From positions 1 through 20,963 of the forward strand of contig JAUQYZ020000103.1 of NCBI GenBank assembly GCA_030587475.2: DNA of 20,963 bases, in the 5' to 3' direction. This document shows positions 7,195-20,963 of the stretch, in pieces. The translations under genes and the position numbers were made by a program. Origin of the DNA: Candidatus Sigynarchaeum calidifontis (GTDB lineage Archaea; Asgardarchaeota; Lokiarchaeia; Sigyniarchaeales; Sigyniarchaeaceae). Position 1 is the stretch's first letter. Each line of letters begins with the position of its first letter. Below the pieces are notes generated by a model that searched no databases, was not told where the DNA came from, and saw only the letters and a list, made by a program, of their open reading frames with translations.

Positions 7195-8760
7195 TTAGGG
7201 GATGACATTCCTTTTTTTTCTTTCCCGCTGCTTGTTGATTTCTTCGAGCACGCGCGTGAATTCCTGGTAATCAGAGATGAGGACATCTTTTGCATCGATG
7301 ATTTTATTGCATTTCGCGCGCTTCAAGGCCATCGATTTCATCTGCACCGCCTTGGCCATGAGCAGCGCCTCTTCGATGCTGTTTCCCACGGGGATATTTG
7401 CCTCGTTCAAGGGTTCCTTGATCATCTCGTACTTCGCGAGCCACGGCAGGTACGTGATGATCGGCTTTCGGTAGAGACGAACCACGCTAGCAATGCGGCT
7501 TCCCAGCGACATTGAGAGCATGGGTGGATAGGGCAAGATCAAGAGCAAGACGAGCTCGACTCGCGGGTTCTTCATGAGCACCTCGAGCACGTGAACCACG
7601 TCATCGTCGCTACAGCTGCCCGTGAGGTCGATCGGGTTGCCTAGTCCAGCGATATTCTTCACGGCCGGGCTCAAAGCTTCACGAATGCTATTTATCTCGT
7701 CCTCAGAGAAGTCCAGGAGACCTAAATGGTACCTCTCAGAGATATCGGTCGAGAGCACGCCGTGGCCACCCGAAACCGTTATGATCGCCATGTTCCCGCT
7801 GAAAGTGTGCATGAAAAAGGGCTTGTTTTTGCCCGCGAGCAAGGTGAAGGCCTTGACATAGGCAACGAGCTCTTGTTCCGTGTTTACGTTGATGATCGAG
7901 AACTGCTTCAGCGCTCCTTCGAGGACCAGCTCGTTCGACGCGATCGCGGCCGTGTGTGAGGACGCTGCCTTCATTCCCCGCTCGGATTTCCCGCCCTTGA
8001 GCATCAATATCGTCTTATTCGTGTCGCGGCTCTTGAGCAAGAACTCCCGGCCGCGCTGGTTCGCAAATCCTTCGAGATAGAACCCGATGACTTCCGTTTG
8101 CGGGTCGTGCTCGAAATAATCGAGCATCTCCACCTCGTCAAGCACGGCCTTGTTGCCCAACGAAACCGCTTTCGAGATGGCAATGTCACGCTCGTAATTC
8201 TTGCAAAAGAACTGGTCAAGCAGCACTCCGCCAGACTGGGAAACGATGCCCATGTTGCCTTTCGACTTTGGAACAACGAATCTTTCGTTCGGGATGATGA
8301 TCGTGTTGATGTGGGGGGGATTGTAAACGCCAACGCAGTTAGGACCGATGAGCGGCACGCCGTGGTGGAAAGAAAGCCTGGTCATCTCGTCCTGGATTGC
8401 CTTTCCTTCCGGGCCGGTTTCCGCGAACCCGCCGGAGATGACGATGAATCCCTTCACACCGAAATCGATCGCATCCTTGAAGACCGGCAGCGTATCGCTG
8501 GCCTTGAGGCACATGACTGCCACGTCGATGTTTTTCGGGATGTCGAAGAGGGTCCTTTTGAGTTCCGTGCCCTCGATCGAGCCACCCTTTGGATTGATGC
8601 CAAAAACCTTCCCAGACGTGTAGCCCTTGATGATGAGATTCCGCTGGTAAATGATGAACCCCGGGTTGAATAGATTGGACGTGCTCACTCCGACGACCGC
8701 TATCGTGTCGGGTTCGAATATCGGCTTGAGATCAAACGAGGAATCCATGCTCATCGTCAC
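7195..8760 (-). CDS. NDP-forming acyl-CoA synthetase (acetate-CoA ligase) alpha-subunit-like protein
   Basis: CoA-binding N-terminus (FEPDTIAVVG, INPK), ISGGFAE, IGPNCVG, SQSG, SLGNKA, YLEG, LKGG, catalytic ASSHT, NPIDLTG. No ATP-grasp beta domain. Alternative ATG starts at 8754 and 8748. Confidence 0.9.
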   Translation of the reverse strand: MTMSMDSSFDLKPIFEPDTIAVVGVSTSNLFNPGFIIYQRNLIIKGYTSGKVFGINPKGGSIEGTELKRTLFDIPKNIDVAVMCLKASDTLPVFKDAIDFGVKGFIVISGGFAETGPEGKAIQDEMTRLSFHHGVPLIGPNCVGVYNPPHINTIIIPNERFVVPKSKGNMGIVSQSGGVLLDQFFCKNYERDIAISKAVSLGNKAVLDEVEMLDYFEHDPQTEVIGFYLEGFANQRGREFLLKSRDTNKTILMLKGGKSERGMKAASSHTAAIASNELVLEGALKQFSIINVNTEQELVAYVKAFTLLAGKNKPFFMHTFSGNMAIITVSGGHGVLSTDISERYHLGLLDFSEDEINSIREALSPAVKNIAGLGNPIDLTGSCSDDDVVHVLEVLMKNPRVELVLLLILPYPPMLSMSLGSRIASVVRLYRKPIITYLPWLAKYEMIKEPLNEANIPVGNSIEEALLMAKAVQMKSMALKRAKCNKIIDAKDVLISDYQEFTRVLEEINKQRERKKRNVIP

Positions 8761-8783: not shown

Positions 8784-9614
8784 CTAAAAATCATCCCCCT
8801 TCTCGGCCTCGGATCGTGGATCAGCGTCTTCGGGTTCTAGTGGGCGCTTTGACCCTTTGAAGAGATCACGTGCATTAATTTTGTACTTCTTGAAGAGTAA
8901 CGCGATGATTATCGCGATGCCAGCTCCAAGGGACAAGAATATCAATGAGATGACGAAGAAAGTGAAGTCCGAATTTGGATCGTACATGGACTCGAGAAAC
9001 ATGTGGAACTTGGCCGTGCCGTTCTGGTAGGTCATGAGAACGTCGTCCACGATTCCCTTGTCATTGAAATCGATGCGGATACGCTCGTCCGGTGCCGTCT
9101 TGTTTCTTGCATCATAGATCAAGGCGCTTTGATCCAGCGTGATGTTCCAATTCGTGTCATTGCATCGGGACGCGTATGCGATCTTGAATTGCCACATGGG
9201 TATGGCAAGATCCATTGGAAGCACGAGCATGTTATCCCCGATGGCATCGGCGGTGAGCGAATATACTTCCGTTTGAACGTCGAATTCCGCGTAGGATGTC
9301 AATGCTTTCATCGTCAACCATTGCTTTTCTCCCAGGTTCAGCTCGCGGCTGAGATTGCCGATCAGCTTTCGGGCGATTACAGTCGAGCCAGACAAGACGG
9401 GACGTATCTCGATAACGGTGAATTTCATCCTGGTATTCCGTTCAAAGATCACGGGTGATTTCTCGATGACCCACGTGAAGGACCATCCTGCCCCGAACAC
9501 CCATGGCTTCTGATCGTTTTCCTCGACACAAATACGCGCACTTCCAGGGCTAAAACACGAGCAAGCGACCAGACATGCGATCGCACACGCGATCACGGCA
9601 TTTTTTCGGAACAT
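8784..9614 (-). CDS. Secreted, single C-terminal-TM membrane-anchored hypothetical protein
   Basis: Signal-peptide-like N-terminus MFRKNAVIACAIACLVACSC, beta-rich body, TM segment FTFFVISLIFLSLGAGIAIIIALLF followed by KKYK. Confidence 0.8.
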   Translation of the reverse strand: MFRKNAVIACAIACLVACSCFSPGSARICVEENDQKPWVFGAGWSFTWVIEKSPVIFERNTRMKFTVIEIRPVLSGSTVIARKLIGNLSRELNLGEKQWLTMKALTSYAEFDVQTEVYSLTADAIGDNMLVLPMDLAIPMWQFKIAYASRCNDTNWNITLDQSALIYDARNKTAPDERIRIDFNDKGIVDDVLMTYQNGTAKFHMFLESMYDPNSDFTFFVISLIFLSLGAGIAIIIALLFKKYKINARDLFKGSKRPLEPEDADPRSEAEKGDDF

Positions 9615-9707
9615 GAGTGGCCTCGTGACATCTCGGTTCCCTCAACATTAAAGGCTTGTGGCACGTCCGCTTCATGCCCCCCTGGACGAGATGGCGGACG
9701 CGCGATG

Positions 9708-9743: not shown

Positions 9744-12305
9744 ATGAGCCGTCAGCCCGCTAGCCAGGGCACAGGCATGCCATCGCTCGATGCCGTCATC
9801 ACCGGCTTGAGGCCCGGGGATAACGTCGTCTTTCAAGTGGACAAGGTACTCGATTATATGCCATTCGTGCGATTGTTCTGCGATGATGTTGTAAAAAACG
9901 GTCACAAGCTGATTTACTTTAGGTTTGCAAGCCATGCGCCTCTCTTGCCTGGAGACATCGCTGCGGATCGCCACGACCTCAATCCGGCGGCCGGCTTTGA
10001 GGCGTTCATCGGTTCGATCCTTTCGATCATCGAGCGAGCGGGCAAGGGTGCTTGCTATGTGTTCGATTGCATGTCCGATCTTGCCGCGGATTGGTACAGC
10101 GACATAATGCTTGGTAATTTCTTCCAATTGACATGCCCGTACCTGTTCGATTTCGATACATTCGCGTACTTTGCACTGGTTAGGAATCGCCACGCATCCC
10201 AGGTTATCGAAGCCATCCAAAACACGGCCCAAGTTATCATTGACGTGTATCACCACGGTGACGGCATCTACGTCCATCCTATCAAGGTGTTCAAGCGCCA
10301 CTCGCCGACCATGTACATGCTGCACGAGCTCCGCGGGAAGGATCTCGTCCCGATAACGCGGAGCAGCGACGTGGCCCGTTTCTTTTCGGACACGCTCCAT
10401 TCACGGTTCGATTTTACCGAGACACGCGTGGACACGTGGAAGGTAACTCTCCAGCACGCGAGCACCGTGATCGATCGCATGACCGCCGGGATAATATCGG
10501 CCGAGGAGAACGAGCGCGTGCAACAAAAACTTCTGCGGATGTTCATCGCGCGAGAACAACGGCTGCTCGAGCTTGCCTCAAAATATCTCCACTTGCCGGA
10601 ATTACTCTCCATCGGAAAGCGCATGATCGGTACTGGCTTGATAGGTGGCAAGGCGGTGGGGATGCTCCTGGCTCAGGCCATAATAAACAAGAAGGCCCCT
10701 GCACTGGCTGCAAGATTAGAGCTCCAAGATTCCTTTTTCATCGGATCGGACGTGTTCTACACTTACCTGGTGAGAAACCACGCGTGGTGGGGCCGGCGAA
10801 GGCTGTCAAACCCGGCCACCTTCTTGGAAGGAATTGAAGAAACCAGGTTACGCATCCTGGAAGGCAGTTTTCCGCCTTATATCATCGAACAATTTGTCCA
10901 CATGTTAGACTACTTCGGGCAGAGCCCCATCATCGTTCGATCCAGCAGCTTGCTAGAAGATGCGTATGGAAATGCTTTTTCTGGTAAATACACGAGTATT
11001 TTTTGTCCGAATCAAGGCACTCCCGAACAGCGTCTCGCGAAATTCGTCGACGCGGTCAAAGCCATCTATGCAAGTACCATCAACGAAAATGCACTTGCGT
11101 ATCGGCATTCTAGGAATTTGCTAGATAAAGACGAGCAGATGGCCTTGCTTGTCATGCGCGTGTCCGGCGACGTGCATGGGAAGTATTTTTTCCCTCAAAT
11201 TGCTGGCGTGGGTTATTCTTTTAATCCATTCGCGTGGAGCCGTGACATCGATCCCAAGGCGGGTCTTCTCCGCCTTGTTTTTGGTCTCGGCACGCGCGCA
11301 GTCGACAGGAAGGATGATTACACGCGTCTCGTGGCGTTGAACAATCCTACCGAGAGAATTCTCAAAAGCGAGCAAGCCATCAAGAAATATTCTCAAAAGC
11401 GGGTGGACATGCTCGATCTCCAAGAAAATACCTTCATCTCCCCTTTTTTCTACAAGGTATCGAGCGAGATACGGGGCAGCCTTCCCATGCACCTTTTCTC
11501 GGCGACGGGCGATGTGCTCACACTGGACGAAGTTCTCAGCAAAACCGATTTCCCGAAGGACATGCGCCTCTTGCTCAAGATACTAGAAGATGCATACTCG
11601 AATCCCGTCGATATAGAGTTCACGGCGAACTTTTCCAGCAATACCGAATATTCGATCAACGTGCTCCAATGCCGGCCATTCCAGGTAAAGCGTGAAATAC
11701 ACGTCGTCGATCGGCCAGGGGAGATCCACGAGGATCAATTGATTTTCAAGACAGAGGGACCAATCATCGGTACCAGCATGGCGATTGCCATCGACATCCT
11801 TGTCTACGTGGAACCCGAGCGATACGGGCAACTTGCAGAAAGAGACAGGTATCACATCGCGCGTTCGATCGGGCGGATCAACGCGCATCCATCTTGCAAG
11901 GGGCGGAAGATCGCGATCCTCGGGCCGGGAAGGTGGGGAACTGCCATGTCGTCCCTTGGCATCCCCGTGACTTTTTCCGAGATCAGCAACGTGTCCATCA
12001 TCGGCGAGATCGCAGAAATGCACCAGGGCCTCATCCCGGATGTCTCACTCGGTACGCATTTTTTCAATGATCTAGTCGAATTCGACATCCTCTATTTTGC
12101 CTTGTATCCGGGGAGGAAAGGATATATTATAAGAAAAGACACGATCGATCACCTTCCGAATTCACTGGAAGACCTCGTGGATGATGCAAGCAATCTTCGC
12201 GATGTTTTAAAGGTCATCGATACTAAGCGCTGCGGGGACCATCGCGTGATCAAGATGTACATGAACTCGATGGAGCAGCGGGGCTTTTGCTATTTGGAGC
12301 TTTGA
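9744..12305 (+). CDS. PEP synthase/PPDK-type ATP-grasp domain protein with N-terminal degenerate KaiC/RecA-like domain (about 853 aa); not a complete PEP synthase
   Basis: IGGKA, PIIVRSSSLLED..AFSGKY, FGLG..AV, DIEF, LQCRP. N-terminal TGMPSLDAVITGLRPGDNVV without a Walker A. C-terminal GPGRWG..SLGTHFF. No pyruvate-binding TIM barrel. The track start at 9705 overlaps the TATA box. Confidence 0.88.
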   Translation: MSRQPASQGTGMPSLDAVITGLRPGDNVVFQVDKVLDYMPFVRLFCDDVVKNGHKLIYFRFASHAPLLPGDIAADRHDLNPAAGFEAFIGSILSIIERAGKGACYVFDCMSDLAADWYSDIMLGNFFQLTCPYLFDFDTFAYFALVRNRHASQVIEAIQNTAQVIIDVYHHGDGIYVHPIKVFKRHSPTMYMLHELRGKDLVPITRSSDVARFFSDTLHSRFDFTETRVDTWKVTLQHASTVIDRMTAGIISAEENERVQQKLLRMFIAREQRLLELASKYLHLPELLSIGKRMIGTGLIGGKAVGMLLAQAIINKKAPALAARLELQDSFFIGSDVFYTYLVRNHAWWGRRRLSNPATFLEGIEETRLRILEGSFPPYIIEQFVHMLDYFGQSPIIVRSSSLLEDAYGNAFSGKYTSIFCPNQGTPEQRLAKFVDAVKAIYASTINENALAYRHSRNLLDKDEQMALLVMRVSGDVHGKYFFPQIAGVGYSFNPFAWSRDIDPKAGLLRLVFGLGTRAVDRKDDYTRLVALNNPTERILKSEQAIKKYSQKRVDMLDLQENTFISPFFYKVSSEIRGSLPMHLFSATGDVLTLDEVLSKTDFPKDMRLLLKILEDAYSNPVDIEFTANFSSNTEYSINVLQCRPFQVKREIHVVDRPGEIHEDQLIFKTEGPIIGTSMAIAIDILVYVEPERYGQLAERDRYHIARSIGRINAHPSCKGRKIAILGPGRWGTAMSSLGIPVTFSEISNVSIIGEIAEMHQGLIPDVSLGTHFFNDLVEFDILYFALYPGRKGYIIRKDTIDHLPNSLEDLVDDASNLRDVLKVIDTKRCGDHRVIKMYMNSMEQRGFCYLEL

Positions 12306-12687: not shown

Positions 12688-14010
12688 ATGGTATCCAAGG
12701 AAGACGTACTGCAAATCGTTAAAGAAAAAAATGTCGGGTTTATTCGAATATGGTTTACAGATGTTCTTGGTTTCTTGAAAAGCTTCGCCATCACTCCTGC
12801 TGAATTGGAGAGTGCATTTGAAGAGGGCTTGGGCTTCGATGGGTCGTCCATCCGGGGCTTTACAGGGATCGAGGAAAGCGATGTCGTCGGGTGGCCAGAC
12901 GCATCGACGTTTCAGATCTTGCCCTGGCGGCCGAAAGAACAATCGGTCGCCCGGATGTTCGCGGACATAACCAACCCCGATGGCACGCCCCTGGAGGCTG
13001 ATCCGAGGTACGTGCTCAAGAAGATGCTCAAGAAAGCGGCTGACAAGGGATTCACGTTCTATATCGGGCCGGAGCTCGAGTATTTCTACTTCCAGAACGA
13101 TGAAAGCACCGACTTCATCGAAAAGGTCGGTTATTTCGACCAGTCATCCAAGGCTTTCGATATCGAGCTTCGCCGGGAGACCGTGCTTGCCTTGGAAGGC
13201 ATGGGCATCCAGATCGAGAAGTCTCACCACGAGGTGAGCCCATCCCAGCACGAGATCGACATGCACTACGCGGACGGCTTGACCATGGCTGATTGGACGA
13301 TCACGTACAAGCACGTGGTGAAGGCAATCGCCCAGAGATTCAACGTCTCGGCCACATTTATGCCAAAACCAGTTTATGGAATCAACGGCAGCGGCATGCA
13401 CTGCCACCAGTCGCTGTTCACGGGCAACAAGAATGCATTCTGGGATCCAAATGACGAGTATCACTTGAGCAAGGTTGGAAGGTCTTACATCGCTGGCCTG
13501 CTCAAGTATGCCCCTGAATTCGCGATCATCACGAACACATGGGACAATTCCTACAAGCGCCTCGTGCCTGGATATGAGGCTCCCGTGTACCTCGCGTGGG
13601 CTCGCCGCAACCGCTCGGCACTGGTTCGGTTGCCCATGTACAAGCCCACCAAGGAAAAAGCGACCCGGTGCGAGTTGCGATGCCCGGATCCATCGTCGAA
13701 TCCGTATCTCGCGTTCACGGTCATGCTCGGTGCCGGTTTGAAAGGTATTGAGGAAAAACTCGAGCTCCCGCCACCCGTTGAGAAAAACATCTTCCATCTC
13801 GGGTGTGACGAGCGGAATGGCCTGAACATCAAGGAGATGCCGGGCAGCTTGTTGGAAGCGATCAACATCGCGGAAAAGAGCAGTTTTCTCAAGGATGCGA
13901 TTGGTGAAAGCGTTTTCAATTATTACATCACCAACAAGAAGTGTGAGTGGGATCGATTCCGCACCGCTGTCACGGACTGGGAAATCAAGGAGTATCTGCA
14001 CATGCTATAG
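12688..14010 (+). CDS. glnA: Glutamine synthetase type I (GSI-alpha-like, 440 aa)
   Basis: FDGSSI, GPELEYF, HHEV, QHEI, TFMPKP, GSGMH, NSYKRLVPGYEAP, NRSALVR, ELRCPD, NPYL; AGGTG upstream of the ATG. Confidence 0.97.
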   Translation: MVSKEDVLQIVKEKNVGFIRIWFTDVLGFLKSFAITPAELESAFEEGLGFDGSSIRGFTGIEESDVVGWPDASTFQILPWRPKEQSVARMFADITNPDGTPLEADPRYVLKKMLKKAADKGFTFYIGPELEYFYFQNDESTDFIEKVGYFDQSSKAFDIELRRETVLALEGMGIQIEKSHHEVSPSQHEIDMHYADGLTMADWTITYKHVVKAIAQRFNVSATFMPKPVYGINGSGMHCHQSLFTGNKNAFWDPNDEYHLSKVGRSYIAGLLKYAPEFAIITNTWDNSYKRLVPGYEAPVYLAWARRNRSALVRLPMYKPTKEKATRCELRCPDPSSNPYLAFTVMLGAGLKGIEEKLELPPPVEKNIFHLGCDERNGLNIKEMPGSLLEAINIAEKSSFLKDAIGESVFNYYITNKKCEWDRFRTAVTDWEIKEYLHML

Positions 14011-14569: not shown

Positions 14570-16072
14570 ATGAACGATACGAATGCGCGATCGGGTCAAG
14601 ACAATCTTGAACAAGACAAGCTCCGCGAGCAGTGCGGCGTTCTCGCCATTATTTGTGACGATCCGTGCATGAACGTCGCGCAATTCATATATACGGGCTT
14701 GATGGCTCTCCAGCACCGGGGGCAAGAAGCAGCGGGCATTGCAGTGATGCGGCCGGGTCGTCCCATCTTCCGGTACCGGGATGTCGGCCTAGTGAACGAT
14801 GTCTTGAGCCCTGAAAAGATAACGGGTTTGAGTGGAAATATCGCGCTCGGGCACGTCCGCTATGGCACGGTATCCTCGTCAACCGACGTGGCATGCGCGC
14901 AGCCGTGGCTCTTCCAATCCAACGAGATCAACTTTGCAATCGTCTTCAACGGTACCATCACGAATTATTCAGCTCTGCGGAAAAGGCTCGAGGAGAATGG
15001 CCACGTGTTCACGACATCCGTCGATACAGAAGTGATATCCCACCTGATCGCGGATATACACAAGAAACACGGTGAATGGGTAGAGATTATCAACATCCTC
15101 ATGAAGACCCTGGATGGAAGCTATGCAATCGTGATAATGACGGAGGCAGGGGATCTTTTCGGTTTCCGTGACCCTCGCGGGTACAAGCCCTTGTGCTATG
15201 GTGAATTCACGGCGGGCAATGGCCACGAGACACGTCTCCAGATCCTTGCATCCGAGACGTGCGCGATCGACGCGCTTTCCGGAAAGGTTATGGGCCATGT
15301 CAAGCCCGGGGAAATCGTACATGTGCAAATGAACGAGTCATTGCGCTCGGAATCCACGATTAACTGCGACCGGCATGCCTTGTGTCAATTCGAATTCGTT
15401 TATTTCGCGAACAACACGTCGGAACTCGATGGTATCTCGGTCTACGAGACCCGCAAGAAACTCGGGGCCAACTTGTTCAAGATCGCGCCGGTCATGTCGG
15501 ATAACGCGATCGTCGTGCCGGTACCCGATTCTGGCCGATCGGCAGCGCTTGGTTATGCTCAAGCGTCTGGCTTGCCCTTCGAGGAAGCACTCATCAAGAA
15601 CCGGTACATCACGCGCACGTTCATCATGCCCGGTCAAGACAAGCGGCGATCGCTCGTGAACTTGAAGCTCTTTCCAGACAAGAAGACGCTTAAAGGGAAA
15701 GATGTCATCTTGATCGACGACAGCATCGTGCGGGGAACGACGACCGAGAAGATCGTGCGATTGCTCAAGAACAACGGCGCCCGCTCCGTCCACTTGCGCA
15801 TCTCTTGCCCACCGATCAAGTATCCTTGCTTCATGGGCATCGATTTCCCGACTCGCCACGAGCTGATAGCGTCGAACCATTCCGTGGACGAGATTTGCCG
15901 AATGCTCGGTGCAGACTCCCTCGCATACCAAACGATTGACGGGTTGATAGAAAGCATCGGCCTGGGAAAAAATGATCTATGCATGGCTTGCCTCGATAAA
16001 ATATATCCCCTCACGAGCCCGCCATGCATGGAATTGCTGGAGGAAACCTTCACGAAGAACCGTCAATCGTGA
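14570..16072 (+). CDS. purF: Amidophosphoribosyltransferase (Fe-S, propeptide type)
   Basis: Propeptide then CG nucleophile (REQCGV), QHRGQE, GHVRY, PVPDSG, DDSIVRGTT; Fe-S ligands CQFE, CFMG, CMAC. Confidence 0.96.
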   Translation: MNDTNARSGQDNLEQDKLREQCGVLAIICDDPCMNVAQFIYTGLMALQHRGQEAAGIAVMRPGRPIFRYRDVGLVNDVLSPEKITGLSGNIALGHVRYGTVSSSTDVACAQPWLFQSNEINFAIVFNGTITNYSALRKRLEENGHVFTTSVDTEVISHLIADIHKKHGEWVEIINILMKTLDGSYAIVIMTEAGDLFGFRDPRGYKPLCYGEFTAGNGHETRLQILASETCAIDALSGKVMGHVKPGEIVHVQMNESLRSESTINCDRHALCQFEFVYFANNTSELDGISVYETRKKLGANLFKIAPVMSDNAIVVPVPDSGRSAALGYAQASGLPFEEALIKNRYITRTFIMPGQDKRRSLVNLKLFPDKKTLKGKDVILIDDSIVRGTTTEKIVRLLKNNGARSVHLRISCPPIKYPCFMGIDFPTRHELIASNHSVDEICRMLGADSLAYQTIDGLIESIGLGKNDLCMACLDKIYPLTSPPCMELLEETFTKNRQS

Positions 16073-16159: not shown

Positions 16160-17248
16160 TCAATCATCGTCTATAGATTGCTTTTTACTCGCCTTTTCCG
16201 ACGCCTTGAAGGCCACGCCGCCACCTGGGCAGGAACGGCAGGATCCATCCTTGTGCTTCTCGCACGCGGGATCGCCAGGCTTGAAATAGCGCGTCGGGAA
16301 GAATTCCGGCTCCACGATGCGCGTCGATATCAAGATCTGGGAATCTTTCACGCCCGGCTCCGTCTTGGGCGAGCACGTGTTGATGAAGGCTTGCAATTCG
16401 TCGATGCCCTCGGCGATGATGCCGTAGATCAGGTTGTATTTCCCGACCGACTCGAAGCAGAACAACATGCGAGGGCAGTTCTTGTAGAGCTCGATAATAC
16501 GTTGGGTGTCGACGGCGGAACCGGTTTCGAGCAGCATGATCCCTATAACTACTTTGTATTTCTGGAGATTCATGGTCGCCTGGATGCGAATCGCGTCGGC
16601 CTCCAATAACTTCGTGATACGATTCTTCACTCCGACGTGTGAATAGCCTTGCTTGTCCTCGACCGACAGCTTCTCGCCAATGTCGACGAGCTTCATCCGC
16701 CCGTCCTGGGATAGAAGGCTAATGATTTGCTTGTCAACCGGATCAATATCCGAGAGTGTTCCCCGCTCCTTGATTTTCTTTTCCAGCTGCTCGTAGTTCT
16801 CCATGATGGCTTTCACGCGTGCATCGAGGAGTTGTTTTTTCATCTCCTCCTTGGTCTCGATGGTCACCTTGAGCCGCGTGCCGATGTCACGGATGAGAAA
16901 TGTCTCGAACTCGAGAAAAGGCAAATCCTGGAGGTAGAAGATGTCTATCTCGAGACGCTTGCCTGCAATGTCGATAGCCGTGTTTAACTTGTACGGCGAT
17001 TCCTTGAAGATGGCGGTCTTGTAGACCTTCCCGCCATATTTGATTTGGCTTGTCGTCACTTCCGGATACTGCATCGCCTGCGGGATAAGCATGACGACTT
17101 CCTCAAGTAACTGCTCAACGGATTCCGCATCGTCAGCGATCTTGGAGATGCCGTACAAGCAGTTGAGTTCCTTGACACGCTCCTTTAAATCGTGTTCGGA
17201 TTTCTCGAGGCGTTCGATAAGCTTCTTTTGAGATTCCACGGTCGTCAC
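16160..17248 (-). CDS. Lrp/AsnC-family regulator with N-terminal GAF-like sensor and C-terminal Cys tail
   Basis: ERVKELNCLYGIS..IPQAMQYPE N-domain; IDPVDKQIISLLSQDGRMKLVDIGEKL..VKNRITKL HTH; CPRMLFCFESVGKYNL RAM-like domain; PACEKHKDGSCRSCP tail. GTG start. Confidence 0.88.
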   Translation of the reverse strand: MTTVESQKKLIERLEKSEHDLKERVKELNCLYGISKIADDAESVEQLLEEVVMLIPQAMQYPEVTTSQIKYGGKVYKTAIFKESPYKLNTAIDIAGKRLEIDIFYLQDLPFLEFETFLIRDIGTRLKVTIETKEEMKKQLLDARVKAIMENYEQLEKKIKERGTLSDIDPVDKQIISLLSQDGRMKLVDIGEKLSVEDKQGYSHVGVKNRITKLLEADAIRIQATMNLQKYKVVIGIMLLETGSAVDTQRIIELYKNCPRMLFCFESVGKYNLIYGIIAEGIDELQAFINTCSPKTEPGVKDSQILISTRIVEPEFFPTRYFKPGDPACEKHKDGSCRSCPGGGVAFKASEKASKKQSIDDD

Positions 17249-17680: not shown

Positions 17681-19348
17681 ATGACAAAATTCGTTTTCAT
17701 TACCGGGGGTGTTATGAGCGGTATTGGAAAAGGCGTGACCACTGCTAGCATAGCGAAATTGCTCCAGTTCAGGGGTTACAAGATTTCTATTGTCAAGATC
17801 GACCCGTACTTCAACATCGATCCGGGCACGCTATCGCCCATCGAGCACGGCGAGACGTTCGTCACCGAGGATGTCTGGCAGTACACGCCTTTTAATCAAT
17901 GCAATGACACGTTCAAGATCGCCGAGCTCGACCAAGATTTCGGCACTTACGAGCGGTTCATCGGAAAAAACATCCATCCATCCCACAACATCACGTCTGG
18001 CCAAGTTTTCATCGAGATCATCTTGAAAGAACGCCACGGCGAGTTCCTCGGCAAGACCGTCCAGCTCATTCCCCATGCCACGGACGCTATCAAGGCGCGC
18101 TTGCATCAAATCGCCAAGGAAGAACAACTCGAAGTGCTCCTCGTCGAGTGCGGTGGAACGGTCGGGGACCTGGAAAGCATGATCTTTCTCGAAGCGTTCC
18201 GCCAGATGCGACTCGAACACGAGGGCGACACGTGTCTCATCCACGTGACTCTCGTCCCGTACAACGAGTCGGTGGGCGAGCTCAAGTCCAAGCCCACGCA
18301 GCATTCCGTGCGGCAGCTGCAATCCGCGGGGTTACAGCCCGATATCGTGATATGCAGGAGCGCGATCGCGCTGGATGATGCCTCCCGAAAAAAGATCTCG
18401 CTGTTTTGCAACGTCGCCCCGGGCCGGGTTATATCGAACCCCGACATCGGCACGATATACGAGCTGCCGCTCATATTCGAAAAACAATCGCTCGGGGATT
18501 CCATATGCTCGATCTTGAGACTCCAGCCTCGCCTCATCGAATTCTCCCCTGTCGAGAATTACTCCGAGTGGAAAAAGCTAGTCGAATTATACAAGATACA
18601 TCCTAATGGCATCATCAACATCGCAATGCCGGGCAAGTACACGAAAAACAAGGATAGTTACGTGAGCATCAACGAGGCGCTCAAGCACGCGGGTGCACAT
18701 AACGGTGTTGAGATCAAGATCAACTGGCTCGACACGGAAAACTTGGACAGCATATCCGAAATCGAAAAGAATGACGGCGTTTTGCTTACCCCTGGCTTTG
18801 GCGGCCGGGGTGTCGAGGGCATGATCGCGGCAGCCGATGCGGCGATTGCCAAAAAAATCCCATATCTAGGCATCTGCTATGGATCGCAGTTGCAGTTCAT
18901 CGCGTTGTGCCGGCGTTTCCTTGGTTATGCCGATGCGAACACGACCGAGATCGACCCGAAAACACAGCATCCCGCAGTCGACATGCTCACTGATCAACGG
19001 AGTATCAACATGCTTGGCGGGACCATGCGGCTCGGGGCGCATGCGATATATATCAAGCAAGGTACGCGATTGCACGATGCATACAAGAAAGACGTGATAC
19101 ATGAACGGTTCCGGCACCGCTTTCACATAAACAACGACTATGCAGCGCAACTAGGACGACATGGTCTCGTCATATCCAGCACGGACAAGTCTGGCGAGAT
19201 CATCAACTCGATCGAGATGGCGGGCGAGCAGTTCTGCGTCGGCGTCCAATTCCACCCCGAGTTCAAGTCCCGGCCATGGGCCCCGTCACCCATTTATGAT
19301 GCCTTCGTCAAGGCGTGCAAAGCATATCGAGATAGGTCTCGTGCGTGA
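17681..19348 (+). CDS. pyrG: CTP synthase (divergent)
   Basis: GGVMSGIGKG, KIDPY.NIDPGT.SP.EHGE, YERF, GGTVGD.ES, KSKPTQHSV, GKY, GICYG (Cys nucleophile), GGTMRLG, QFHPEF. Confidence 0.96.
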   Translation: MTKFVFITGGVMSGIGKGVTTASIAKLLQFRGYKISIVKIDPYFNIDPGTLSPIEHGETFVTEDVWQYTPFNQCNDTFKIAELDQDFGTYERFIGKNIHPSHNITSGQVFIEIILKERHGEFLGKTVQLIPHATDAIKARLHQIAKEEQLEVLLVECGGTVGDLESMIFLEAFRQMRLEHEGDTCLIHVTLVPYNESVGELKSKPTQHSVRQLQSAGLQPDIVICRSAIALDDASRKKISLFCNVAPGRVISNPDIGTIYELPLIFEKQSLGDSICSILRLQPRLIEFSPVENYSEWKKLVELYKIHPNGIINIAMPGKYTKNKDSYVSINEALKHAGAHNGVEIKINWLDTENLDSISEIEKNDGVLLTPGFGGRGVEGMIAAADAAIAKKIPYLGICYGSQLQFIALCRRFLGYADANTTEIDPKTQHPAVDMLTDQRSINMLGGTMRLGAHAIYIKQGTRLHDAYKKDVIHERFRHRFHINNDYAAQLGRHGLVISSTDKSGEIINSIEMAGEQFCVGVQFHPEFKSRPWAPSPIYDAFVKACKAYRDRSRA

Positions 19349-19393: not shown

Positions 19394-20963
19394 TCAATAA
19401 CGACCCGAGAAGATCTGGTCCTTGACCTCTTCAAGATCGAGTGTATCCTGCCGCTCGACCCCGATATTCCACGTTTTACAGACTTCGTATGCGTTGTCAG
19501 ATATACATGCAATGTCACGTCGATCGATCAGGTTGAGCTTGAACTTGCGGACGCCCGCGAGAAGTTGCTTGAGGCCCGTGCCGAGGCGGTTCGTGAAATA
19601 ACTATAAACTCCCATGGCGCCACCAGATATTTGCTTGCCCGGGTACTTTCGCTTGAGCTCGTCGGCAACGATAAATGCCTCCTCCATCGTGAGCGAGGCC
19701 GGGTCCTTGGCCTTGTCAAAACCAAGGGCTTCCAGCATTGCCTTCGTGACCGAGTGTTCCTTGATAGACTTTTCGACGAAGGTGCCTTTCATAGCCGCTG
19801 TGATGGGCGCCCGAGCCATGGCTATGCACGTGACGTACGGCGCGCCCATCGCGATGGCCTTGAACATGTGGGTCTCGTTGGCGAGGCCGCCGGCGATCGC
19901 GATGGTCGGGATCTTGGCGCTGGGCGTCTTGTGCTTGATCATGTCGAGGCAGCCCGTGACCAACGCTTCGAGGTAGACGGTCGGGATGGAACCCTCGTTC
20001 ATCATCGTGACCGGGGACATGCCGGTGCCACCACCCGCGCCGTCGAACGTCATGCCGTCGACCTTGCCCTCGACACCGAGGCGTATAATCCACGCCGTTG
20101 CCGAGGGGCGATACGCGCCGGTCTTGATAAAGAGGTTTTTGATGCCCATAGCTCGGACCTTGTCTAGGCTTTCGAGGAAGGCCTCGGTTGACGTGATGCC
20201 CACGCGCGAGTGGCGCTCGAAGTCCATTATGTGTCCCGACTTGTATTGTTCGATCACGTCCGGGTTGAACGGGTCGGGGATGACCAGATAGCCGCGCTTG
20301 GCGAGAAGCTGGGCGCGCTCGAGCGATTCGAGCCGCACCTCGCCTCCGATGGCCTTGGCACCTTGCCCGAATTTTTCCTCGAGGCTCTTTACCTCGAGCT
20401 TGCTCGTGACGTACTCGAACACGCCGAGGCGCGTATCCTCGACGTTTCGCTGGATGATGATGTCCCCGTTCTTGCCATCCCAGAATTCTCGATACGTGTT
20501 CACGCGGAATTTCATGTCCTCCGTGTCGACGACGCGAGGATACTTGTTGCCGTTCTCGAACTTGGCATTTGAGTCCATGCCACACACGTTTTCGCCGACC
20601 GTTATGGAGCAGCCTGACAAGGCCGCACCATGAGCCAGGCCTATCCAGTTCCGCTTGGCGACGTAGGTCGACCCGAGACCCGCAATGACGATCGGCAGCT
20701 TTTGCGGGATATTGCCCCATCTCGTCGTGATGTCCGCGTTGGGGAAGATCGCCTTGTCCATGTCCTCGTCGATGCCCTTGGCTCCCCGGACCTCGAACTG
20801 GATCTGGAAGTCGCCGAAGGAGAGGCCGTAATCCTTTGGCGTGCCTGCGGTTGAATCGCCGAAATATTCTCTCAAGGGATACAAGGTCTCACGACCTCGA
20901 AGGGCCGACTTGCTGACTTCGCAGAACACGGGACAATCAGCGATGCAGATCGGACACAAGCCC
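19394..20963 (-). CDS. FMN-binding glutamate synthase family protein (stand-alone domain 2, COG0069-like); 5' end beyond the window
   Basis: Frame is open to the right edge (..GLCPICIADCPVFCEV). GLGST, VGENV, KFGQGAKAIGGE, IKTG, DGAGGGTGMSP, AGG, MARA. Confidence 0.9.
   Translation of the reverse strand, partial: GLCPICIADCPVFCEVSKSALRGRETLYPLREYFGDSTAGTPKDYGLSFGDFQIQFEVRGAKGIDEDMDKAIFPNADITTRWGNIPQKLPIVIAGLGSTYVAKRNWIGLAHGAALSGCSITVGENVCGMDSNAKFENGNKYPRVVDTEDMKFRVNTYREFWDGKNGDIIIQRNVEDTRLGVFEYVTSKLEVKSLEEKFGQGAKAIGGEVRLESLERAQLLAKRGYLVIPDPFNPDVIEQYKSGHIMDFERHSRVGITSTEAFLESLDKVRAMGIKNLFIKTGAYRPSATAWIIRLGVEGKVDGMTFDGAGGGTGMSPVTMMNEGSIPTVYLEALVTGCLDMIKHKTPSAKIPTIAIAGGLANETHMFKAIAMGAPYVTCIAMARAPITAAMKGTFVEKSIKEHSVTKAMLEALGFDKAKDPASLTMEEAFIVADELKRKYPGKQISGGAMGVYSYFTNRLGTGLKQLLAGVRKFKLNLIDRRDIACISDNAYEVCKTWNIGVERQDTLDLEEVKDQIFSGRY

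Follow-up and report, generated by a model that had tools for sequence, protein, structure and literature searches.

A pseudo-KaiC, dikinase-like protein of the Asgard archaeon Candidatus Sigynarchaeum calidifontis and its widespread relatives beside nitrogen-assimilation genes

Introduction

The control of ammonium assimilation is known mainly through PII, GlnD/GlnE, NtrBC, GlnR/TnrA and NrpR. The characterised enzymes with a PPDK_N ATP-grasp domain that are known to us employ a phospho-His carrier. [quoted passage not shown] Response regulators that join a receiver (REC) domain to a 'pyruvate phosphate dikinase' occur in Bacteroides and Heimdallarchaeota, and the same source mentions inactivated KaiC domains (PMC5847659). 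In this study, we analyzed the gene for a dikinase-like protein with a KaiC-like domain that lacks a P-loop. It lies on a 20,963-bp stretch of DNA (the window), which is the entire contig JAUQYZ020000103.1 of the 5.0-Mb, 89%-complete genome of the Asgard archaeon Candidatus Sigynarchaeum calidifontis. Our literature search found no paper describing this pseudo-KaiC dikinase-like family.

Results

The dikinase-like protein adds a new domain architecture to the known PPDK_N dikinase superfamily. Its family probably controls nitrogen assimilation in an ATP-driven and so far unrecognised way, because the gene adjoins glutamate dehydrogenase (GDH) and other ammonium-assimilation genes in many phyla. 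The protein consists of a KaiC-like N domain, a PPDK_N ATP-grasp domain and a C domain (Table 1). An initial annotation, made from the sequence alone, had described this anatomy and given the reading frame and its coordinates, including the codon of His785, all correctly. Residues are numbered from the ATG at 9705 (866-aa form). The start at 9744 is likelier because homologues begin at M14: they align from residue 14-23, and the database copy begins at M14.

The ATP-grasp domain is intact and of the PEP synthase (PEPS) type, as initially proposed. PPDK_N (PF01326) is the sole Pfam match of the protein (E 1.8e-43, 149.5 bits against a cut-off of 27), and its motifs are kept (GGK314-316, RSSSLLED412-419, FSGKY425-429, GLGTRAV527-533, DIEF636-639 and LQCRP654-658). 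The GGK, RSS..ED..FxGK, GLG, DIEF and LQCRP motifs line up with their archaeal PEPS/PPDK counterparts, and those of the nucleotide/Mg site (GGK, RSS..ED, DIEF/W and LQxR) are invariant in 45 homologues. In PPDK, the DIEF...LQxR motifs line the Mg/phosphate site. NCBIfam models for PEPS, PPDK, rifampin phosphotransferase (RPH) and PigC match the ATP-grasp core alone, at 12-41 bits against cut-offs of 456-1350. The PEP-utilizers_C TIM barrel is absent by Pfam, by NCBIfam and in the full-length model, in agreement with the initial annotation, which had noted no pyruvate-binding barrel. Pfam and NCBIfam also gave no match to the PEP-utilizers (PF00391) mobile phospho-His domain, and no PDB chain matched the full protein sequence at E ≤ 1. 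The full-length AlphaFold2 model, based on a 45-sequence alignment, has a mean pLDDT of 85 and a pTM of 0.82.

Separated from the ATP-grasp by a linker of about 20 residues, the C domain spans about 190 residues and belongs to no Pfam family. The histidine singled out initially, His785, proved invariant in all 236 C domains compared, including those with as little as 25% identity, and R743, G752, E768, S781 and G783 are likewise invariant. It is the only invariant histidine across the ATP-grasp plus C module. Modelled alone (residues 668-866, 70-sequence alignment), the C domain reaches a pLDDT of 94 and a pTM of 0.92. The model begins with a Gly-rich hairpin (GPxxG, 685-702), a helix (712-727) and a parallel strand (736-741), followed by a second strand (763-769), a loop ending in S-x-G-T-H, the helix 784-792 and a third strand (796-800). 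When His785 is set on the catalytic histidine, this is presumably the element order of the canonical carrier domain of PPDK/PEPS. An alternative alignment that sets GRWGT on the GGxTSH loop, taken from a low-confidence hhalign trace, was rejected because it would leave out the swivel fold's second parallel strand.

Fold comparison of the C domain with Foldseek returned weak matches. The top rows were CCT/thermosome apical domains, the small subunit of carbamoyl-phosphate synthetase and PA domains. Phospho-His proteins among the matches were Enzyme I (5woy, 2wqd, 5t12), PPDK (2fm4 384-511; 1vbg 384-512) and RPH (5hv1 758-867), the last at the top of the swivel-fold enrichment; the PEP-utiliser-like C domain of Bacillus stearothermophilus pyruvate kinase (2e28 475-583) was also matched. 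Most of the others were RraA, cyclase/kynurenine formamidase, LD-carboxypeptidase, LeuD, FumA-C and chaperonin apical domains. These scores are within the range possible without homology, and the DRTGG domain ties with the phospho-His domains. We take the matched proteins all to have the SCOP 'swivelling beta/beta/alpha domain' fold (c.8). From the predicted structure, we conclude that the C domain probably belongs to the swivelling beta/beta/alpha fold class, with phospho-His domains as its nearest solved examples. Searching the ESM Atlas with the C domain retrieved only the same family and unnamed clusters of stand-alone C domains of about 200-218 aa.

The N domain has the RecA-like core fold of the KaiC/RecA superfamily. 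A Walker A motif (GxxxxGK[ST]) is missing: its position reads QVDKVLDY, and no P-loop occurs in residues 1-305 or in the family consensus. Residues invariant in a 45-sequence alignment include D39, N40, Y51, H77, D121, S124, T174, Q176, K194 and R198. By our reading of collinearity, the invariant residues would correspond in sequence to the Walker B and catalytic-Glu motifs of KaiC and to its later motifs. On this mapping, H77 takes the position of the KaiC catalytic Glu pair, where the site reads A-x-H. The initial annotation had called the domain dead; the absence of Walker A stands, but such dense conservation at KaiC motif positions is better described as 'repurposed'. From about residue 265, the helical linker is part of the conserved catalytic module and is present also in variants without the KaiC-like domain.

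To profile the gene neighbourhood, ORFs were called in 80 loci and in the window, clustered with BLASTP, and the recurrent clusters annotated with Pfam; counts out of 76 refer to loci with a called target ORF, from many phyla, and to neighbours within 7 kb. The initial annotation had mentioned GDH genes beside similar proteins, and a gene of the Glu/Leu/Phe/Val-dehydrogenase family (GDH, about 450 aa) was indeed present in 31/76 loci. It was directly upstream on the same strand in 17/76, and the 18 pairs listed with this arrangement are spaced by -44 to 217 nt. Other neighbours were GltD (10 loci), GltB (9), NrpR (7), GlnA (4) and a PurF-like amidotransferase (3), and at least one of GDH, GltB, GltD, NrpR and GlnA was found in 45/81 loci. 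By chance, any one given gene of a 4-Mb genome would be expected within 14 kb in well under 1% of cases. Among the commonest recurrent neighbour families of the about 80 loci, only nitrogen genes and LysR were annotated. Twelve further Asgard loci had GDH adjacent in eight cases and GOGAT genes in two.

The partner GDH is class-specific. After setting aside two of 42 scored GDH-family ORFs that do not adjoin the target in the MK-D1 locus, 38/40 belonged to one class and 2/40 to a second; both classes are encoded in this genome. Main-class GDHs are 56-68% identical to the copy on contig C218 of this genome (89% for the same-genus copy), and their N-terminal PNQxEFHQA motif is that of E. coli-type GdhA. 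The usual partner of the family is the GdhA-type GDH, not glutamine synthetase (GS), whose adjacency is the exception (4/76 loci) and is absent even from the same-genus relative.

The family is large and widespread. A word-indexed search gave 7,876 matches among 8,000 scored candidates, most of about 870 aa, with about 50% identity over 97-98% of the length. Source names included Lokiarchaeia, Sigyn-, Hod- and Promethearchaeota, Elusimicrobia, Spirochaetes, Fibrobacteres, Omnitrophota and Margulisbacteria. By their titles, the best 80 loci extend this range to Planctomycetota, Verrucomicrobiota, Lentisphaerota, Acidobacteria, deltaproteobacterial lineages, Gammaproteobacteria, Dechloromonas and a Methanomassiliicoccaceae archaeon. 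An exhaustive search of representatives yielded 3,391 clusters at E ≤ 0.001 (749 at E ≤ 1e-30), and at least 598 stretches with a relative were present in a one-genome-per-species collection (GTDB representatives).

The catalytic module (about residues 265-866) recurs with other N-terminal partners. It stands by itself in P0206 (about 620 aa), follows an unassigned domain of about 160 aa in the about 770-aa variant P0197 and is found in variants of about 1060 aa (P0216/P0232), in which an 'ELNCLY' sensor domain precedes the module and an NTP_transf_2 nucleotidyltransferase follows it. This Pol-beta-type domain ends the variants P0216, P0232 and P0182. Pol-beta-type nucleotidyltransferases are the fold class of GlnD and GlnE in classical nitrogen control. 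The Lrp/AsnC-like regulator encoded in the window has an N-terminal domain of about 130 aa (KELNCLY) without a Pfam match that is homologous to the N domain of P0216 (BLASTP E 5e-14, 28% over 148 aa), and this shared sensor domain ties the regulator and the dikinase-like module into one signalling vocabulary. P0197 and the Lrp-like ORF have no common N domain.

A REC-fused form of about 1000 aa (L115-L117) is 24% identical (BLASTP E 8e-40) and retains GRWGT and GTHFF. Such a REC-type paralogue adjoins the KaiC-type gene and GDH in a genome taken as P. syntrophicum MK-D1 (order GDH<, 887 aa>, REC-993 aa>), in a Bryobacterales metagenome-assembled genome and in bacterium UASB270. Thus arranged in tandem beside GDH, KaiC-type and REC-type genes are found in an Asgard archaeon and in two bacteria (L118, G021:C1, 8009-13699; L022, 3969-9613; L047, 3879-9589). 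There are also metagenomic tandem fusions of about 1500 aa (P0011-P0013) with two catalytic modules per chain, the first half without a KaiC-like domain. The tandem genes beside GDH, together with these fusions, suggest that the KaiC-type and REC-type paralogues work as a pair.

In a genome of the same genus, the protein is 80% identical and the upstream genes are syntenic, and gdhA lies downstream of it (L125, G001:C419, 3-3905) where the window carries glnA-purF. DNA similarity between the congeners stops just past the stop codon of the target. The orthologous gdhA of the present genome (89% identical) is on the 5.4-kb contig C218, beside an RraA-like gene, so the GS adjacency here probably reflects a recent, local swap between ammonium-assimilating enzymes. 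Because glnA stands at the place that gdhA has in the relative, its adjacency is no evidence for GS as the target of the family; a role at the Glu/Gln node would still agree with the swap. The difference between the congeners could be a rearrangement or an assembly join.

PII (PF00543) was not found in this 89%-complete genome and was present in 10/201 sampled genomes of the phylum. We considered the family as a replacement for PII and rejected this, as PII is rare phylum-wide and 3/10 orthologue-bearing genomes also have it. The only canonical PPDK of the genome (PPDK_N plus PEP-utilizers; G000:C48, about 21443-22873; L100 325-3003, minus strand) is broken by an in-frame TAG into ORFs of 212 and 667 aa, and a pseudogene, a sequencing error and read-through are possible explanations.

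The features of the window, whose G+C content is 44-55% in 1-kb windows, are listed in Table 1. At its end, a 522-aa ORF (19394-20962, minus strand) runs past the window. Its segment at 19829-20197 weakly matches Glu_synthase (PF01645; E 1.9e-7), and the ORF is possibly another glutamate-related gene of the cluster.

Table 1 Domains of the dikinase-like protein and other genes of the window
Feature	Position	Strand	Details
Dikinase-like gene	9744..12305	+	853 aa from M14; ATG at 9705 gives 866 aa
Pseudo-KaiC/RecA-fold N domain	9762..10397	+	residues 20-231; without Walker A
Helical linker	10398..10637	+	residues 232-311
PPDK_N ATP-grasp domain	10638..11720	+	residues 312-672
C domain, candidate phospho-His carrier	11736..12302	+	residues 678-866; predicted swivelling beta/beta/alpha-type fold
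GPGRWGT loop	11922..11942	+	residues 740-746; R743 invariant
His785 codon in SLGTHFF	12057..12059	+	first turn of helix 784-792
ADP-forming acyl-CoA synthetase-like gene	7195-8760	-	
Unannotated ORF	8784-9614	-	276 aa; N-terminus signal-peptide-like by eye
glnA (glutamine synthetase)	12688..14010	+	downstream of the dikinase-like gene
PurF-type amidotransferase	14570-16072	+	
Lrp/AsnC-like regulator	16160..17248	-	362 aa; N-terminal sensor domain, residues 20-131
pyrG	17681-19348	+	

Discussion

The explanation we favor, and to which we give an even chance, is a PPDK-type autophosphorylating enzyme that charges His785, from which the phosphate goes on to an external acceptor belonging to the GDH/GS/GOGAT node, with the pseudo-KaiC domain for input or docking. 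The ATP-grasp domain would bind ATP and transfer a phosphate (the beta, or beta-gamma as in PPDK/PEPS/RPH) to His785, which would be carried on a divergent, C-terminally tethered swivel domain. Once charged, this domain would swing away and deliver the phosphate to the acceptor. As acceptor, the likeliest candidates would be the GdhA-type GDH, whose gene is the neighbour across most lineages, and other Glu/Gln-node enzymes (GS in this genome, GOGAT elsewhere). The P-loop-less KaiC-like domain may act as an oligomerisation platform or bind a metabolite or partner, and in paralogues receiver or sensor domains take its place. Reading the family as regulatory dikinases is plausible. Our main argument is that N-terminal input domains are swapped on a constant module, a hallmark of signalling output, which favors a regulatory over a metabolic role.

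Several points weigh against this explanation. The equation of His785 with the catalytic histidine is a candidate placement by secondary-structure order rather than by residue-level superposition, and the His785 loop is the least confident part of the full-length model (pLDDT 51-61). The initial annotation had aligned the C domain by eye with a swivel domain; at the level of fold, the nearest solved structures are phospho-His carriers, but Foldseek of the isolated domain gave no PDB match at E ≤ 0.001. Comparison of the C-domain profile with 24 archaeal PPDK/PEPS His domains by hhalign gave a probability of 0.1-0.2%, both global and local, a weak negative because the His-domain profile is narrow (Neff about 3). 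About 50% identity over 850 residues across domains of life is more like a metabolic enzyme than a regulator, about 40% of loci have no nitrogen gene within 7 kb, and GdhA, GS and GOGAT are candidate acceptors only. The observation made in the initial annotation is confirmed, and its interpretation is partly supported: the domain anatomy, the missing barrel, the invariant His785, the link to nitrogen-assimilation genes and, at fold level, the C domain speak for it, whereas autophosphorylation on His, control by the N domain and transfer to GS are proposals.

It is unlikely, in our view, that the protein is instead a metabolic enzyme whose substrate is some metabolite from the 2-oxoglutarate/glutamate/glutamine node, working either as a small-molecule dikinase or as an ATP-dependent ligase, with the repurposed KaiC-like pocket or the C domain as the substrate site. 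The frequent co-directional, short-gap pairing with gdhA is operon-like, conservation from bacteria to archaea is very high, and many invariant N-domain residues are at the positions of KaiC nucleotide-site motifs, all of which would suit an enzyme. RPH, glucan water dikinase, PigC and HpeHI also phosphorylate small or polymeric substrates. However, the module occurs alone or behind receiver and sensor domains, without the KaiC-like domain, which is the pattern of signalling output. It also has no recognisable substrate-binding domain, and there is no known pathway gap for it to fill.

We consider it quite improbable that no phospho-His is involved, with the C domain serving for binding or oligomerisation, His785, R743, E768 and S781 forming a ligand or metal site, and the ATP-grasp acting as an adenylate-charge sensor or by direct transfer without a carrier. 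The C domain has no sequence similarity to His domains, its fold matches are weak and tied with DRTGG, RraA and cyclase folds, and R743, G752, E768 and S781 have no mappable counterpart in canonical swivel domains. Yet its position, the order of its secondary structure and its helix-cap histidine parallel the canonical carrier domain. To our knowledge there is no carrier-free PPDK_N enzyme, which also counts against such a scheme. An ordinary PEP synthase or PPDK with the pyruvate-binding barrel on a separate subunit is very improbable. Database names such as 'pyruvate, water dikinase' and weak NCBIfam PEPS matches point to it, but the NCBIfam scores are far under their cut-offs, no barrel gene is among the commonest annotated neighbour families of about 80 loci, and a canonical PPDK with a PEP-utilizers domain lies on another contig of the genome.

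Combining these elements, the family might be a widespread transducer of nitrogen and energy signals, an extension of the phospho-His explanation that we hold tentatively and regard as rather doubtful as a whole. A pseudo-KaiC ring would dock on hexameric GdhA (or GS/GOGAT), and phosphate borne on His785 would pass to the enzyme or a bound metabolite, switching between GDH and GS-GOGAT according to ATP/AMP and 2-oxoglutarate. REC and sensor paralogues would add other signals, and the system could be the main post-translational nitrogen control where no PII is found, as in this Asgard archaeon. The family has thousands of members, the Asgard ones being about 50% identical to those of at least a dozen bacterial phyla, and is physically tied to gdhA, gltBD, glnA and nrpR. 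Should it control GDH, by phosphorylation or otherwise, a further and previously unknown layer would be added to nitrogen control in anaerobes and in the archaea related to eukaryotes, and PPDK-type phospho-His chemistry would reach into signalling, as with VadK. That the module is fused to receiver and sensor domains also points to a novel class of output domain in signalling.

VadK is the closest functional precedent for a 'regulatory dikinase', likened here by description and not by sequence. Its pathway, unlike that of the family, is the methylcitrate cycle, and VadK retains a canonical His domain and is not known to have a KaiC-like domain. A 'PPDK-like' gene for nitrate resistance in Desulfovibrio (PMC4001038) was considered as a family member and rejected, being a different protein with a canonical mobile domain. 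Compared with RPH (RPH-Lm; PDB 5hv1, 5hv3, 5fbu), the family lacks the rifampin-binding/middle domain, scores 17.9 bits against the NCBIfam RPH cut-off of 999, has a C domain that is about 80 residues larger and without sequence similarity, and adds the KaiC-like N domain. With PEP synthase and PPDK it shares PPDK_N with all nucleotide-site motifs, and with PEPS a candidate carrier domain directly after the ATP-grasp. Unlike them, it has no PF00391 match and no PEP-utilizers_C TIM barrel, and its gene context is nitrogen assimilation, not gluconeogenesis. KaiC-family and archaeal KaiC-like ATPases (PH0284, Sso2452, ArlH/FlaH) differ from its N domain, which lacks the P-loop, has A-x-H at the catalytic Glu and is fused to an ATP-grasp enzyme. 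The REC-'PPDK' response regulators, likewise uncharacterised, share the same ATP-grasp plus C module, and the family described here carries a pseudo-KaiC domain in place of their receiver input.

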